Below are positions 14,580-56,331 of a stretch of 64,000 bases of DNA, one piece after another; the stretch's first letter is position 1, and every line of letters begins with the position of its first letter. Made by a program: the position numbers and the translations under genes. Source of the DNA: Aulosira sp. ZfuVER01 (lineage in GTDB: Bacteria; Cyanobacteriota; Cyanobacteriia; Cyanobacteriales; Nostocaceae); the NCBI GenBank assembly GCA_034530615.2, contig JAVRCV020000062.1:1-64000 (forward strand), given 5' to 3'. The notes beneath the pieces were generated by a model. That model saw only the letters and a list, made by a program, of their open reading frames with translations. It was not told the DNA's origin and searched no databases.

Positions 14580-14885
14580 AACTAGCTTACTTTTCAGGAG
14601 TAGACAATAAAACGGAGAATGTTCTAGAACCTTGCCTTATAATTGCAAAAGTTAGGTAATGGTATTTGAATTACCAAATTGCTCCACCTAATCTTTAGCT
14701 TGTATCGGATTAGACAGGCTTTAGGTTCTTCTCAGCGTTTTTGCTTATAATTGGTAGATGCGATAGCCTTGATTATTAATGCTTGTAAGGGTTTTTGCGG
14801 AAAACCCAACTTGATTACAAGTATACCTTGACAGTCCAAATAATCAAGGTATTTGTTCCACTTTTTTAACTGGCTGAAAAATTCT

Positions 14886-15458
14886 ATGGCTTCTCACGAA
14901 AGTGATGTAAAAGATACTCCAGCGGCGTCAAAAATATGGCGTAGTTCGCAGGAAAATCTAATTTTAATTGCGATCGCACTATGTTTGGCATTTGCGATCC
15001 GGACTTTTATTGCCGAACCGCGCTACATTCCTTCTGATTCAATGTTACCCACCTTACATACAGGCGATCGCCTGGTTGTAGAAAAAATCTCTTACCGTTT
15101 TCACTCTCCCAAAACTGGGGATATTATTGTTTTTCAGCCACCAGAAGAACTCCAACGTCGGGGATATCCTCAAGACCAAGCTTTTATTAAGCGGGTAATT
15201 GGTGAACCCGGAGAAGTAGTCAGCGTTGCACGTGGGAAAGTTTACCTCAACGGTAAAGCTTTGCAAGAAGACTACATTGCCGAACCACCAAATAATCCTT
15301 ACCCGCCACAGACAGTTCCAGAAGGTGAGTTTTTTGTGATGGGAGACAATCGTAACGATAGTAACGATTCTCGCTACTGGGGTTTTTTGCCGAGAAAAAA
15401 TATCATTGGTCGAGCCACATTTCGCTTTTGGCCGCTCAACCGATTTGGATTTATTTAA
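14886..15458 (+). CDS. lepB: Signal peptidase I
   Basis: IPSDSMLPTL (catalytic Ser), FIKRVIG (Lys) and GDNRNDSNDSR boxes. Confidence 0.95.
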   Translation: MASHESDVKDTPAASKIWRSSQENLILIAIALCLAFAIRTFIAEPRYIPSDSMLPTLHTGDRLVVEKISYRFHSPKTGDIIVFQPPEELQRRGYPQDQAFIKRVIGEPGEVVSVARGKVYLNGKALQEDYIAEPPNNPYPPQTVPEGEFFVMGDNRNDSNDSRYWGFLPRKNIIGRATFRFWPLNRFGFI

Positions 15459-50613: not shown

Positions 50614-53600
50614 ATGAGCGATGTCTACCGACAAGCCACTGGGCGCAAGAAAGCAGGTACATCCACTTTTTCAAATCCATCACTTGTCTCACCAACAAAT
50701 CCAACGCTGGCGAACCCAACAGGCGGTTTTGCGGTCACAAATCATGCTCCAGTCCCAACAGCAACTCAGGTATCAGCTGACTTTCAAGAAGCGCAGTCTG
50801 CTAGCGAGCAATTAACGGAAGCAGATGTCATTCAAGAAAAACCCCTTGCCCACGACATTAGTCGAATATCGCTGTTTCGTTCACAGGCACAATTCTCAAC
50901 AAGCCAACCTGAAAAAACTCATGAGCCGCTTACCTCAGAAATAGTGCAGCGTAAATGTGCTGCTTGTGAGGAGGAAGAGGAGGAACTGCAACGCACAATA
51001 GACACTCCGGTTATCCAACGAGATGAAACCAGCAGTTTACCACCAGTTCCCAACTACCAACTTTCTCCCCCTTCACTGCTGCAACCTCCTGACCCTGCTT
51101 CACGCTATGGGTTGGGTATGGATATGCATTTGCAACTCGATCCCCAGTTGCAAGCGGCAATGCAGCATATCCAGCAGCAGCTACATCCGGCATCGATTCG
51201 ACCTGCACTAAGTCAGATCAATTTAGGAGTTTTACCCGATCGGAGCAGTCCTAACACACCAAACCCCTTTGCTACCACAACTCCACCGCCTGCTTCGCCA
51301 CTTGTACCTGCGGGTGCGGGGCCAGAAACTCCCAGATCTGCCACAACCGGAGATTTACTGTCAGCGATTATGGCTGTGCCAGCAATTGATAGTGCTTTAA
51401 ATTCGTTGCAAACACAAGCAAGCGAACGCATATCTCAAGACTGGGGACGGTTAAGAACTGGTGAGCAGGTTGCTGTTGTCAGCACTACTGTATTGATTGG
51501 TGCTGGCGCACTTGCAGGTGTGCTTTCCGATCCCACCACTCGCCAATTCGCACTAAATCAATTGAATGGCAAAACCATACCTGTTCCTGGATTGAACTGG
51601 TTGCGCTTGGAGATGAATACAGGTGGCGATAACTTAATGTTAGGGATGCACGTTGATGTCGGACGCTTATTGCCATCCAGTTTAGGATTTGGGCCATCTT
51701 CTCCCAGTGCGATCGGTGGGCCGCCGCAACCTGAACCTGCTGTTCCCGGACAGCGCACGATCCAAAGAGTTGTAGATGTTCCAGAAGCAACTTCTGAGCC
51801 ATCAATTGGGCAGCGCATTCAACAGGCAGCATCTAGCGGTGGTAGCAGTTTAGACAAGGGCGTTCAGCAGCATTTAGAACAAAGCTTAGATACTGATTTA
51901 TCTGGTGTACAGATTCACACTAATACTGAAGCCGATCGCCTGAATAAATCGGTAAATGCGATCGCCTTTACTAGTGGCCAAGATATCTTTTTTAGTGCAG
52001 GTAGCTATAATCCCAGTTCGTCAGCAGGTAAGCATTTGATTGCCCATGAAGTGGTGCATACAGTACAGCAGGCGAACGGAGCAGTAACGGGGAAAGCTAC
52101 AAATGCAGGCATTTCCATCAGCGATCCATCAGATGCATTTGAACAGGAAGCAGAGCAAGTAGCCGATCGGGTAATGCGGATGCCAAAGGAGGCGATGCCT
52201 GCGGCGGGCTACGCCAACGCAACTCAGCAATCTCAGCCACCATCTCTGAGTCACAATTTCAGCAATATTTCGATTCTTGCTAAACATCAACCTAATGATG
52301 CTGCCAACCTTACAGATGTTAGCCAACAGCCAGTATCTTTGAACGTTGCCAACTCAACAGATAATCCTGTCAACACTAAGGTTGATGATACTGCTGTATC
52401 TCCTAAAATTCCTCCGAAAACAGAAACATTATCGAAAACTACCCCTGAGGATACTAATAACGCTGCACCTCAAGCTGGAGGTGCTGTGAAACCAGGAGCT
52501 AAATCAACTCCAGAGAGTAACAAGGGAGAGGCTGTATCCGGAGTGACAGGTGTACAGAGTATGCCAAGTAGTGGCGACATGGGAACTACGCCATCGCCAA
52601 CCCCCGCATTAGATACCAGCACTTCTGAAGGACTGCTGCAATCTTTAGGAAATACACCCGCTAGTGCCTTTAGTCAGGGTTTAACAACCGCCAAAGCTGC
52701 GAGTGCGCAAATTCAAAGCCAAGAAAAAGCCAACCTGGAGACTATTTTCCCGGAGGTCGATCAGCCAACAGGATTGCCACGCAAAGCTGGAGCGAACAAA
52801 GGTCCAGCAGTTACCTTAGAAACAGGTCAAGTTCCCCAACCCAAAGTTGCTGGCGGAGGAAATACAACTCAGACTGCTGATACTCATCATGAAGTAGCTC
52901 AAGGCCCATTACCAGGTAGTAAAGTGTCTACAGCTGCCTCCGAACCCAAAGATGATGAAGGTGGCAGTTGGTGGAACTGGCTATTTAACCGAGTTCGTAA
53001 TTTTCTTGGCTCTCTACCGACCAGCGATCCAGGTTTATCAACCTCTGCGGGTCCCCGTGAGCGAGTTGACCTAAGTGGAGAAGCCAATCCCAATCAAAAT
53101 TTACAGTATCAGCAAGAATCCGATCGCGAGGTTACGACTCGTAAGGCACAAGCCGACGCGGCTACAACGGCAGATTTTGGCGAAAACAACATTTTCCCCA
53201 CAATACCAACTCAAAAACTCCGACCGAACTATAAACCAACTCCTGCTCAAGGGGCAAAAGGTGGTCATGCTTTGAATCCGCCTGCCATATCAGATGAGAT
53301 GCGAATGAGCTTAGACCGAGATGCTTCTCCCTTGCTGCAAGAAAAAGTGAACGAGCAGCTAGAAGAACATCGCTTGAATCAAGCCACTTATCAAAAGCAA
53401 TCCCAACAGGCGCGTGCAGAAGGGCAACGTCGTATTGCCGAAGAAACTGAACAGACGCGATTGAAGCAAGAAGGAATGCGACAACAGGCGCGGACTGATG
53501 TGAATGCAGAACGGCAAAGATGGCAGGATGAAAACCTGAAAATTCAAGAGAAATATGCCTCCCAGTCAGACGCCAAGCGTTTGGAAATTGATCGGCAAAT

Positions 53601-55722
53601 TGGCGAAAAAGTTCAAACAACAGAACAACAAGCCGATCAAAAGTTTACAGAGGCGGAAACCCAAGCTGATGCTGCACGCCAAAAAGCAGAAGCGCAAGCA
53701 GCAGAGAAAAAACGAGAGGCCGATAACAGACCTCGCAGTTGGTGGGATCGAGTCAAAGGTGCTGTATCAGATGTGTTTGATAGCATTCGCTCGGCAGTGA
53801 ATGCCATTTTCGATGGTCTGCGCAAGATTGTTAAAGGAATTATTGATGCTGCCAAAGCCGCTGTACGCATACTAATTGATGCTGCACGAAGTGCGATCGT
53901 TGGGCTGATCAAAGGATTTGGGGAATTTGTTAAAGGTCTAGTTAGTGTTGCCTTATTCGCCTTTCCCGAAACCGCCGCCAAAGCCAGAGCTTGGATTGAT
54001 GACAAAGTTGACAAATCTGTTGATGCCGTTAATGCCGCAGCTGAAGCCTTAAAACGCGCGACAGATGCGATTTTAGATGCAGTCGGTCTAGCTTTAGATA
54101 CAGCACTGTCGGTAGTTCAAAGTTCCTTCAACTTGATGCTTGATGGGCTAGAGTTTCTAGCAAAACTTCCCTTCGAGGCGATCGCAGCTTTAGCAAAACT
54201 ATGGGAGTGGTTGAAAGAACACAGTCAATTCTTAGAAGGAGCGCAAAAACTCTATGATGACCCCAACTCGGTAATTGAGGGTATCAAAGCAGCTTTGGGC
54301 GAGAAGATTGCCGAAGTTCCTGGCCAAGCTTATGCCTCAATTGAAGCTGAAGGGCAAAAGTTGGGCGGTTCTGCCCAAAAACATATTAAAGGAGTTTTGC
54401 GCCATTTAGACAAGGCACTGGAACATCTCAAAAATAACTGGTGGGAAGAAGTCAAAAAAACAGGCTGGAACCTTCTTTGGCCATGGCCCGCGGTTTGGAA
54501 AGATTTAAAAGAGATTTGGGCACAAATCAAATTAGGTGTTGCTAGCGCCAGCAAGCTAGAAATTAGCAACGCCATTGACTGCTATCTCAAAATGAGTCAA
54601 TTGATGAATGGCGTTTTAGGCAACCTTTACGGCTGGTTCTTCATTGGCTCAGTCTTGATTGGCGCTATCATCGGTGCTTTCTTCGGCGGTGCAGGTGCGC
54701 TCCCGGGAGCCTTAGCCGGAGCCGCTTTTGCGGGTGAAGTCGGAGAGGCATTAGTTATTGCCTTAGTAGCAACCGAAGGAGCAGTAATTGCCAAGTCTGT
54801 ATACGATCTCAGTACTGGAGAAAATACGCCACAGCAAGACGAGGAAGATTACAGTCACATTGCTGGTAGCACTTTAACACTGGCTATTACCGGAGCGCTC
54901 ATGCTCATTGGCGAGCTGGCTGCTAAACTGGCTAAATCTATCTGGGAGGGAGCTAAAGGTTTATTCAAGGGTGGTGAAGCACCAGAAGTTAAGGTTGGCG
55001 GTGGCGAACTACCCGAAGCCAAAGTAGACACCCCAGAGGTTAAGGGCGAAACTCCCGAGGTTAAAGGCGAATCTCCCGAAGTTAAAGGTGAAACTCCTGA
55101 GGTTAAAGGGGAATCACCAGAATCCAAAGGAGACGTTAAGAGCGAAACTCCTGAGTCTAAAGGTGAAATTACAGAACCTACAGCTGATGGTGAACATCAG
55201 TTAAAAGTTGCTGAAGATGGTTCAATTATCCGCTGTTCTAAGTGTCAGAGGATGCGAGATCTTTATAAAGAGGTATTAGACCAAAACCCTGAATTTAAGG
55301 AAAAACTTAAACAAATTGAAACTAAAGAAAATAGTTTAGATCCGAAAGTTAAGGAAAAAGCCTTGAAAGAGGCAGCCAAGTTAGAAAAAGCTATCGTGGA
55401 AGAAGGAATTACGAAAGGTTCTCAGCATTACTTCCCTGAGAAAAATTTAACTGGCTCTGGAAAGCACGGTCTAGATTGGACAGAGGGTCCCTCACGTGCA
55501 ATAGATACAGGTAATCCACAAGGAAAATTCGGAAGTTTGGAAGATGTTCACTTTGCGGTAGAAAAAGGAGCAGACCTTGGAGCAGGTAGTGAAGGCTTCT
55601 TTAACTTACCTGATGGTCATTCCTCGATTGTTTATATGCCAGATGGAAGTATAGTACCGGCTAATCAAATATTTGTGAAAGTTTATCCCAGCGGTAAGAT
55701 TCATGCTTATCCCCTACCTTAA
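50614..55722 (+). CDS. DUF4157 (eCIS core) domain polymorphic toxin-like protein
   Basis: GAGGAGG RBS before ATG 50614; DLSGVQIHT..AIAFTSGQDIFF..LIAHEVVHTVQQ DUF4157 signature; QR motifs, coiled coil, Gly-rich TM region, PEVKGE linker and distinct C-terminal domain. Confidence 0.85.
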   Translation: MSDVYRQATGRKKAGTSTFSNPSLVSPTNPTLANPTGGFAVTNHAPVPTATQVSADFQEAQSASEQLTEADVIQEKPLAHDISRISLFRSQAQFSTSQPEKTHEPLTSEIVQRKCAACEEEEEELQRTIDTPVIQRDETSSLPPVPNYQLSPPSLLQPPDPASRYGLGMDMHLQLDPQLQAAMQHIQQQLHPASIRPALSQINLGVLPDRSSPNTPNPFATTTPPPASPLVPAGAGPETPRSATTGDLLSAIMAVPAIDSALNSLQTQASERISQDWGRLRTGEQVAVVSTTVLIGAGALAGVLSDPTTRQFALNQLNGKTIPVPGLNWLRLEMNTGGDNLMLGMHVDVGRLLPSSLGFGPSSPSAIGGPPQPEPAVPGQRTIQRVVDVPEATSEPSIGQRIQQAASSGGSSLDKGVQQHLEQSLDTDLSGVQIHTNTEADRLNKSVNAIAFTSGQDIFFSAGSYNPSSSAGKHLIAHEVVHTVQQANGAVTGKATNAGISISDPSDAFEQEAEQVADRVMRMPKEAMPAAGYANATQQSQPPSLSHNFSNISILAKHQPNDAANLTDVSQQPVSLNVANSTDNPVNTKVDDTAVSPKIPPKTETLSKTTPEDTNNAAPQAGGAVKPGAKSTPESNKGEAVSGVTGVQSMPSSGDMGTTPSPTPALDTSTSEGLLQSLGNTPASAFSQGLTTAKAASAQIQSQEKANLETIFPEVDQPTGLPRKAGANKGPAVTLETGQVPQPKVAGGGNTTQTADTHHEVAQGPLPGSKVSTAASEPKDDEGGSWWNWLFNRVRNFLGSLPTSDPGLSTSAGPRERVDLSGEANPNQNLQYQQESDREVTTRKAQADAATTADFGENNIFPTIPTQKLRPNYKPTPAQGAKGGHALNPPAISDEMRMSLDRDASPLLQEKVNEQLEEHRLNQATYQKQSQQARAEGQRRIAEETEQTRLKQEGMRQQARTDVNAERQRWQDENLKIQEKYASQSDAKRLEIDRQIGEKVQTTEQQADQKFTEAETQADAARQKAEAQAAEKKREADNRPRSWWDRVKGAVSDVFDSIRSAVNAIFDGLRKIVKGIIDAAKAAVRILIDAARSAIVGLIKGFGEFVKGLVSVALFAFPETAAKARAWIDDKVDKSVDAVNAAAEALKRATDAILDAVGLALDTALSVVQSSFNLMLDGLEFLAKLPFEAIAALAKLWEWLKEHSQFLEGAQKLYDDPNSVIEGIKAALGEKIAEVPGQAYASIEAEGQKLGGSAQKHIKGVLRHLDKALEHLKNNWWEEVKKTGWNLLWPWPAVWKDLKEIWAQIKLGVASASKLEISNAIDCYLKMSQLMNGVLGNLYGWFFIGSVLIGAIIGAFFGGAGALPGALAGAAFAGEVGEALVIALVATEGAVIAKSVYDLSTGENTPQQDEEDYSHIAGSTLTLAITGALMLIGELAAKLAKSIWEGAKGLFKGGEAPEVKVGGGELPEAKVDTPEVKGETPEVKGESPEVKGETPEVKGESPESKGDVKSETPESKGEITEPTADGEHQLKVAEDGSIIRCSKCQRMRDLYKEVLDQNPEFKEKLKQIETKENSLDPKVKEKALKEAAKLEKAIVEEGITKGSQHYFPEKNLTGSGKHGLDWTEGPSRAIDTGNPQGKFGSLEDVHFAVEKGADLGAGSEGFFNLPDGHSSIVYMPDGSIVPANQIFVKVYPSGKIHAYPLP
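55033..55131 (+). repeat. 21-bp coding tandem repeat (PEVKGE[T/S])
   Basis: Four full units and one partial unit with synonymous variation. Confidence 0.9.
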
Positions 55723-55733
55723 AAGGAAAATCT

Positions 55734-56264
55734 ATGTATTTCGCAATTCAAGTTTCTAATCCTAAAGTGTTGCAACCCAATGACAAAGAATTTAATGATT
55801 TTGCAGAGCTTATAGAAGCTATTTTCCCAATGCAAACCGAAGATGTATTTTTGATATGGAATTGGGTACCTGTGCGACTTAACTATAAATATGATTTGAG
55901 CGTTATGATTGAAGACTTAATACCATTGTTAGCTAAGTTGATCGATTCTGATTCAGGTTCCCACAGAGTTTACTGGGGATCTAATACTTTCAGAGCAGAA
56001 TGGATAATCGATTGGGCTAATGGTCAGCTTAATATAGCTTCACAGTGGGATAGCATAGCCGGTAATTACGAAGAGTTACTAAATAGTCGCAGTAAGCTGG
56101 AGATATCTCAAGATCTATTCTTACGCGAATGGAAAGCTCTACTGAGAAAAATTGTTGAGTTAATTGATAATATGAATATTATTGTTACAGATACAGATAA
56201 TTTGAACAATCTTATTAAGATTGAAAACTCTATTCCTTTATTTAGCAAACGCTATTCTCAATAA
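55734..56264 (+). CDS. Putative immunity protein
   Basis: 176-aa acidic, Trp-rich, AT-rich ORF 11 bp after the toxin stop with its own AAGGA RBS. Confidence 0.65.
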   Translation: MYFAIQVSNPKVLQPNDKEFNDFAELIEAIFPMQTEDVFLIWNWVPVRLNYKYDLSVMIEDLIPLLAKLIDSDSGSHRVYWGSNTFRAEWIIDWANGQLNIASQWDSIAGNYEELLNSRSKLEISQDLFLREWKALLRKIVELIDNMNIIVTDTDNLNNLIKIENSIPLFSKRYSQ

Positions 56265-56331
56265 ATATTATTTTCAATTTTTGCTCGTGCAGAGCCTTTG
56301 GTGCGATCGCCTGTTACCATCTCAAACTAAC

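Follow-up and report, generated by a model that had tools for sequence, protein, structure and literature searches.

An orphan DUF4157 polymorphic toxin gene of Aulosira with an exchangeable, predicted ribonuclease tip, a partner immunity gene and a candidate loading leader

Introduction

What is a large DUF4157 toxin gene doing at a site without injection machinery, and which machine would carry its product? The question is raised by two adjacent open reading frames (ORFs) of Aulosira sp. ZfuVER01, on contig JAVRCV020000062.1 (C62), the first 64 kb of which are the window analysed here; the source genome (G000) is 8.0 Mb long and near-complete. Labels from G001 onward denote comparison genomes, C the contigs of G000, L extracted loci and P proteins. 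The toxin ORF (50614-55722, forward strand, +) encodes 1702 amino acids (aa), counted from an ATG that is preceded by a GGAGG site, and is defined by the reading frame, Pfam and homologues. The second ORF (55734-56264, +) lies 11 bp past it and encodes 176 aa with an isoelectric point of 4.6, in agreement with the small acidic ORF of the initial annotation.

The combination of DUF4157, a long linker and a variable toxin is established (PMC3482391, PMC8213781, PMC11297309). An archaeon is known in which a contractile injection system (CIS) exports orphan DUF4157 toxin-immunity pairs (PMC11566945), DUF4157 cargo is described for the Anabaena CIS (PMC8894136) and tape-measure-like cargo is known as well (PMC13277306). 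The kind of system is already known, and what is undescribed are the tip-immunity family and the candidate loading leader: with subscription journals outside coverage, the literature yielded no description of this family, of a link between leader and CIS type, or of Ntox1 as a pre-toxin domain. The available main text of PMC12210884 and 10.1101/2021.10.19.465003 holds nothing on the tip family, and the supplementary toxin lists of the latter, like those of the surveys of extracellular CISs (eCISs), could contain it. In this study, we propose that the pair is likely an orphan CIS cargo gene together with its antidote, which we consider the best explanation of the locus.

Results

A constant body with an exchanged C-terminus

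The larger product is a modular protein, and the parts listed by the initial annotation for its ~1700 residues, namely eCIS_core, a P/T-rich stretch, a hydrophobic stretch, PEVKGE and CSKC, were all located. The eCIS_core domain (PF13699/DUF4157, PVC-metallopeptidase) covers residues 413-489 in the Pfam scan (51850-52080, +; E 4.9e-27), close to the ~51835-52075 at which an HEVVH-bearing DUF4157 had been placed, and its motif, H478-E-V-V-H-T-V-Q with a downstream E (HExxHxxQ-E), lies in the N-terminal part of the protein. By composition, a P/T/G/A-rich spacer leads into the beginning of the conserved body (52189-53313, +; residues 526-670 are 23% P+T), and a charged helical, amphipathic body follows (53314-54603, +), in which residues 901-1045 (39% charged, 13% hydrophobic) fit a coiled coil by composition only and residues 1039-1184 have weak tape-measure similarity (PHROG E 1.1e-4 for the toxin and 6.9e-11 for one homologue). 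Gly/Ala-rich hydrophobic helices (54613-54933, +), a candidate membrane-insertion unit according to hydropathy and Pfam, carry a DUF6861 match under the cut-off (residues 1331-1384, Pfam scan); the hydrophobic windows of the protein are at residues 285-305, 1334-1397 and 1421-1439. Four copies of PEVKGE (residues 1474-1495), the Ntox1-like module and the tip complete the chain.

Comparison with 14 same-genus genomes locates the variable part. Full orthologues in G003 and G006 are 86-87% identical as far as ~residue 1585, the homologue of G008 has only residues 3-541 in common, and in G011 and G012 a gene of 346-354 aa, corresponding to the N-terminal part alone, adjoins the same Uma2 gene. At the DNA level, identity to the orthologues (87-88%) ends at 55064 in G003 and at 55097 in G006, in both cases within a 21-bp tandem repeat (55033-55122, +) that encodes PEVKGE[TS], and it returns at ~56300-56330 in G003 and G008. 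The GC content is 47-50% before this junction, 36% in the Ntox1 module, 42% in the tip and 34% in the downstream gene. The tips of the relatives are wholly different, and the genes that come next encode Imm42 plus BRCT in G003, a pentapeptide-repeat protein in G006 and PoNi in G008. Judged from the DNA comparison, the Ntox1-like module, the tip and the immunity gene form an exchangeable cassette, swapped at the 21-bp repeat.

The same variability is found at larger distances. Among 8000 candidates scored, the body (residues 900-1460) has 110 homologues, including proteins from Paraburkholderia, Bradyrhizobium and actinobacteria, whose last 100 residues fall into 63 clusters, some of the proteins being possibly cut at contig ends; the tips of the 37 body homologues scanned include colicin E3-like, Ntox24, Ntox17, Tox-REase-3 and CdiA_C domains. 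The named organisms with the closest homologues are Nostoc sp. 106C and Calothrix sp. NIES-2098. The body is nearer to proteins of distant bacteria (50-60% identity), many of these proteins with no DUF4157 detected, than to other Nostocaceae DUF4157 proteins, and may be of horizontal origin. Within the genus it is 95-97% conserved as protein against ~88% as DNA. Both the C-termini and the downstream ORFs vary across homologues, as had been predicted, and on these alignments the gene encodes a DUF4157 (eCIS_core) polymorphic toxin, with a constant N-terminal part and a C-terminal domain that differs between close homologues. Four body homologues (L094, L095, L108 and L114) lie within CIS clusters and are not followed by a small immunity-like gene; these are Tme-like members of the family (see Discussion).

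The downstream gene follows the tip

Neither the tip (the last ~100 residues) nor the 176-aa protein has a family in Pfam, NCBIfam or PHROG. A scan of genomes with the tip alone returned 44 loci in many phyla, and a profile of the 176-aa family, obtained from an independent search to which one of the 44 loci contributed, matched immediately downstream of the tip, and on its strand, at all 44. Across 79 loci of homologues with other tips (L043-L121), the profile matched only the copy of the window and an orphan cassette in G038. As the 176-aa gene is downstream of the tip at every one of the 44 loci, we interpret it as encoding the cognate immunity protein (55734-56264, +; acidic, 34% GC); other tips have other next genes, and the toxin-immunity reading of the initial annotation is supported. 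The two are almost certainly a toxin-immunity pair, as far as genomic association can tell. Of five metagenome loci that were found through the immunity family, three carry the tip upstream.

The immunity protein is modelled with a predicted local distance difference test score (pLDDT) of 91, and no known fold matches it clearly (the best Z is 6.6, with the CdiI structures 4ntq and 5ffp weakly matched); in the Atlas it falls in a DUF7878-like cluster with an 11% family share, which is a lead only. The G038 cassette (L050:7768-8600), beside a Uma2-like gene, combines the immunity gene with a fragment of the same tip that is 72 codons long. A gene with a YbjN domain, possibly an effector chaperone, is present behind or near the toxin-immunity pair at 22 of 34 family loci (L045, L048, L049, L096-L118).

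The tip is a mobile domain and a predicted ribonuclease

The tip (55411-55722, +) is 103 aa long and has 184 homologues at E<=0.001. Among the 150 matches listed, the alignment spans most of the domain in 134, of which 127 end no more than 20 residues from it. The 48 longer carriers comprise nine Rhs, five PT-HINT and six eCIS_core proteins, one carrying a T7SS (type VII secretion system) signal, one PT-TG and 26 without a family; its occurrence on such unrelated scaffolds marks the tip as a mobile C-terminal toxin domain. Conservation is concentrated in E1609 (96%), K1617 (85%), H1618 (98%), W1622 (100%), D1644 (95%) and H1697 (96%), with Q1636-G1637 and P1700 also conserved and Y1699 present in 77% (F in 12%).

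In the model of the tip (pLDDT 98.4), the top match by both methods is 5E3E, the CdiA-CT of Y. kristensenii (Foldseek E 0.041, probability 0.93; Z 8.1 with a root-mean-square deviation of 2.6 over 89 aligned residues). YxiD (9v8i, Z 5.5) and MafB2/Ntox50 (8hhj, Z 4.8) come next, then vertebrate ribonuclease (RNase) A homologues, so that all the top rows are ribonucleases. Searches of PDB sequences with the tip and immunity alignments gave nothing credible. The catalytic residues of CdiA-CT Ykris are His175, Arg186, Thr276 and Tyr278 (PMC5435912), MafB2 and YxiD share with RNase A the use of a His/His pair (PMC9970974, PMC12700104), and paired N-terminal histidines have been described for prokaryotic RNase A/EndoU enzymes (PMC7297114). 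From the aligned ends of model and structure we infer that H1697-A-Y1699-P may correspond to T276-G-Y278-P, and H1618 to His175, of CdiA-CT Ykris, which would give the tip a putative His/His pair of the kind found in RNase A, MafB2 and YxiD. With these three toxins, its best structural matches, the tip shares an N-terminal basic-His motif (K1617-H1618) and a C-terminal aromatic-Pro motif; it differs from them in its 9-14% identity, the lack of a hidden Markov model (HMM) match and an unrelated immunity family, and from CdiA-CT Ykris also in having a histidine, H1697, at the position of Thr276. On alignment and model, then, the tip is with high probability a ribonuclease, of predicted RNase A-like/BECR fold.

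A leader points to a Streptomyces-type machine

The toxin locus is an orphan, flanked by an ABC exporter and a Uma2 gene. The initial annotation held that the window is free of sheath, tube, spike and baseplate genes and that delivery would be encoded elsewhere; searches with sheath, tube and baseplate families found no CIS gene in or beside the locus on C62 and matched other contigs only. Family scans of these identify three phage-tail-like or CIS gene sets. The set on C38 is complete, matches the thylakoid CIS (tCIS) of Anabaena (All3325, All3316) and has its own DUF4157 effector, which is leaderless. The second set is split over C68 (Pvc16, sheath and two tubes), C49 (tube, Afp7, VgrG, PAAR, gp25 and baseplate) and C33 (Pvc16 and an AAA+ ATPase), and its C68 sheath is closest to 8bky/8bl4, which we take to be Streptomyces CIS sheaths. 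The third is on C22 and C56. In the relatives, CIS genes flank 20 of the 34 family loci.

The first ~90 residues of the toxin (50614-50889, +) form a conserved leader (KKA..S..P..PT.A.PT.GF ... HDISRISL.R.Q, with HDISRISL at residue 80) that is common to unrelated proteins, among them a 422-aa protein of C71, and is a candidate CIS loading signal. A leader profile (alignment A4, built from 10 genomes that all carry the C68-type sheath) matched 129 of 389 Nostocaceae genomes, all of them within the 235 that have a C68-type sheath and none among the 154 that do not; by sheath subgroup, it is present in 126 of the 171 genomes with the closer one and in three of the 64 with the more distant. A full DUF4157 was found in 16 of the best 26 leader-bearing proteins, within the part examined. 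Within the genus, G011 and G012 have the leader and no detected thylakoid-type sheath, and G002, G004, G005, G007, G009 and G014 have a tCIS-type sheath with neither leader nor C68-type sheath. The genomes of body homologues carry the C68-type sheath in 23 of 27 cases and the thylakoid type in two. The orthologue of the complete genome G003 is found 11.6 kb downstream of a Pvc16-ATPase pair of the C33 type, with which it shares its strand; in G025 and G233 the homologue is one gene downstream of such a pair. Taken together, the leader, the body homologues, the within-genus pattern and the ATPase neighbourhood point to the Streptomyces-type CIS rather than the thylakoid one, and on this comparative evidence loading into the C68/C49/C33 machine is quite probable. 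The available text on AlgoCIS reports that a disordered N-terminus, specific to the system, and an AAA+ ATPase are required for loading, with DUF4157 dispensable, and that loading sequences are not conserved between systems (10.64898/2026.05.27.728243).

Other carriers were considered. The thylakoid CIS is disfavoured, its effector having no leader and the leader tracking the C68-type sheath, and type I secretion through the upstream ABC exporter was rejected, as the exporter is not beside the orthologues; the classical type VI secretion system (T6SS) sheath VipB was not found.

Several further features of these gene sets were recorded. The leader-bearing C71 protein (C71:82622-83890, L061:6622-7890, -; 422 aa) has a weak peptidoglycan-binding match and HExxH but no DUF4157, and is a candidate second cargo of the same CIS. 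At C49 ~258200-258360, divergent from the CIS tube gene, a 54-codon leader remnant looks to be a decayed cargo gene; G391 has DUF4157 genes at that place. The set on C38 (13900-44900; L056, L057) includes a tape measure gene and the DUF4157 effector, of 1119 aa, which is followed by a 128-aa acidic-looking gene. The third set (C22:91800-106499 and C56:500-12000; L119, L120, L062) is unusual, with a 1176-aa protein containing protein-arginine deiminase domains, and adjoins genes that, judged from sequence only, are lanthipeptide-like.

Module X and the Ntox1-like module

The initial annotation described the N-terminus as disordered. The motifs that it named are present (HDISRISL and VQR/IQR, with VQR/LQR/IQR at residues 111, 125, 134 and 383), but residues 134-373 make up a separate, folded-looking module. 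This module X (51013-51732, +) starts at a QR motif, has one hydrophobic helix and, from the architectures of its homologues, would be a movable payload: its family of 33 proteins is stand-alone or combined with DUF4157, lying after it in 11 cases and before it in six, and in G011 and G012 it stands alone behind the leader. It appears that in the toxin gene a resident cargo gene, made of leader and module X, has been fused with a DUF4157 toxin. [VIL]QR motifs recur just ahead of domain starts in DUF4157-type cargo, in the window (50944-51768) and in homologues, and are possible processing or recognition sites. Between the signal peptidase gene (14853-15458) and the toxin gene lie ~35 kb (window 15500-50400), and the two are adjacent in G011 and G012; the gap reads as a rearrangement or insertion. 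Promoter and terminator scans gave results no better than chance.

The module around CSKC (residue 1541), unnoticed as a family in the initial annotation, matches Ntox1 in Pfam (residues 1519-1594, 27.7 bits against a cut-off of 25) and consists of DGxH...CxxC and a helical part (55168-55395, +), with each of the two Cys 93% conserved. In the available text of PMC3482391, Ntox1 is listed as a predicted RNase toxin (Zhang 2012). In 55 of 56 Ntox1-bearing proteins, chosen via body or tip homology such that a terminal Ntox1 may exist elsewhere, at least 111 residues follow the module, often with a known toxin among them, and the exception is annotated as partial. This internal position led us to reject Ntox1 as the toxin domain, and the module is probably a pre-toxin domain. 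In three homologues PT-HINT lies in the C-terminal region and the Ntox1-like module is missing. In P0191 and P0232, eCIS_core and PT-HINT occur in one protein, contrary to the statement, in the same text of PMC3482391, that the PVC system is never accompanied by HINT.

Discussion

In the mechanism that we propose, the AAA+ ATPase encoded on C33 would read the disordered leader and thread the protein into the C68/C49/C33 CIS tube; at firing, the tape-measure-like helical body and the hydrophobic helices would engage the target membrane, and the tip, perhaps freed by processing near the Ntox1-like module, would cut RNA by metal-independent His/His catalysis with H1618 and H1697. In the producer and its kin, the acidic 176-aa protein would cover the active site. 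The likely target would be other bacteria, chiefly related cyanobacteria carrying a different tip.

Several observations weigh against this explanation. The fold scores of the tip are middling (Foldseek E 0.04, and Z 8.1, about the usual best for unmatched models), the Ntox50 match in the Atlas (0.93) comes with a low recognition value, the net charge of -3 is slightly acidic, which is unusual in an RNase, Ntox50 (PF15542) and RNAse_A_bac (PF18431) are matched at E<=0.1 by none of 81 tip-family members, and there is one conserved N-terminal His, not the pair that the available part of PMC7297114 describes. As for the partner, the tip is missing upstream at two of the five metagenome immunity loci, and G000 is without a homologue of the YbjN-like gene. 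The co-occurrence of leader and sheath rests on related, non-independent genomes, with the 10 behind A4 all sheath-bearing; G010 has a sheath and no leader match, G013 has a leader match with an ATPase match of only 40%, and four of the 27 body-homologue genomes lack a C68-type sheath, the homologue in those four being beside a local CIS.

The CIS might instead act within the producer's own filament, in developmental or stress-induced death, with the immunity protein restraining the RNase until firing. The linked sheath is closest to 8bky/8bl4, taken above to be Streptomyces CIS sheaths. Tme, of the same architecture, acts on its producer (PMC11126660), and the CISs of S. coelicolor are reported to be cytoplasmic and to cause self death (PMC12237407, PMC10020575). 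For the same reason, 'extracellular' is not established for the CIS considered here, the type of the best-linked machine being cytoplasmic in Streptomyces. However, the rapid exchange of a tip together with its matching immunity gene in close relatives is a signature of inter-strain conflict, a self-killing device has no need of 63 tip types, and the orphan DUF4157 toxin-immunity pairs of Halogeometricum go out by a CIS aimed at neighbours (PMC11566945, available text). We therefore hold action within the filament to be unlikely, and the exchange of tips among close relatives favours neighbours as the target.

It is quite unlikely, on the same footing, that the toxin leaves by another route, be it the C38 machine, the C22/C56 set, or release by lysis followed by bacteriocin-like self-translocation through the hydrophobic helices. 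All three gene sets are in the genome, and the body has its own hydrophobic unit and is 50-60% identical to proteins of distant bacteria, many of these proteins without detected DUF4157; nevertheless, the C38 effector is leaderless, leader and thylakoid-type sheath occur apart in the eight same-genus genomes named above, the body homologues accompany the C68 type far more often than the tCIS type, and neither VipB nor a conserved exporter neighbour was found. Very improbable, finally, is a relic or a non-toxic protein, that is, a displaced and silent cargo gene, or a tip that is some other small enzyme or a binding domain. The toxin gene does lie apart from the ATPase locus in G000, the leader remnant on C49 has decayed and the fold scores are middling, but neither frame is disrupted, the body is better conserved as protein than as DNA, and both candidate catalytic histidines, HExxH and the partner gene are retained.

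The preferred reading, an orphan CIS cargo gene with its antidote, can be set beside known systems. With PVC-metallopeptidase or eCIS-associated toxins, as the available descriptions give them, the protein shares a disordered N-terminus, an HExxHxxQ-E DUF4157, a linker of >1000 aa and a variable C-terminal toxin; it differs in lying far from a CIS operon, in the adjacent immunity gene, which many of those toxins lack, in the extra payload ahead of DUF4157 and in tip and immunity families without a Pfam or NCBIfam model. The weak tape-measure similarity and the hydrophobic helices recall Tme of Streptomyces davawensis (PMC11126660), for which the available text gives DUF4157, disorder, a coiled coil with tape-measure similarity, transmembrane helices and a C-terminal nuclease. 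A Tme-like effector would be expected as the largest ORF of a CIS cluster, directly upstream of baseplate genes; the present gene lies outside any CIS cluster, with a predicted RNase instead of a DNase and a swappable tip plus immunity gene; the position between tube and Afp7 in the G000 cluster is occupied by another protein, of 980 aa, without DUF4157. The pairs of Halogeometricum borinquense are alike by the available description (PMC11566945), with DUF4157 toxins, downstream immunity genes, some off the CIS cluster, and export by a CIS, but that machine is archaeal, membrane-bound and T6SS-like. Alr3311/Alr3312 (PMC8894136) and Cgo1/Cgo2 of AlgoCIS are, in the text available, likewise DUF4157 cargo with a disordered N-terminus of a cyanobacterial or related CIS; unlike the Anabaena thylakoid cargo, the toxin tracks another CIS, and the tCIS of G000 has an effector of its own.

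All together, we tentatively propose that in Nostocaceae a widespread Streptomyces-type CIS may enlist, through a sequence-conserved loading leader of ~90 residues, scattered orphan cargo including tape-measure-like, kin-directed toxins, that the Cys-pair module Ntox1 may be a pre-toxin domain for release or entry, interchangeable with HINT, and that the tip may be an undescribed RNase A-fold His/His enzyme. From the position data, the toxin label of Ntox1 in Pfam seems to be an error, and the tip with its partner makes up a small, assayable, unannotated family of predicted RNase and immunity protein. The finding bears on how CISs select their cargo and on what cyanobacterial CISs shoot: with a leader that can be found by profile and tracks one CIS type over 389 genomes, the selection of cargo becomes open to direct testing and candidates for cargo can be listed in Nostoc-like genomes, and the exchange of toxin and immunity genes points to antagonism among filamentous cyanobacteria.

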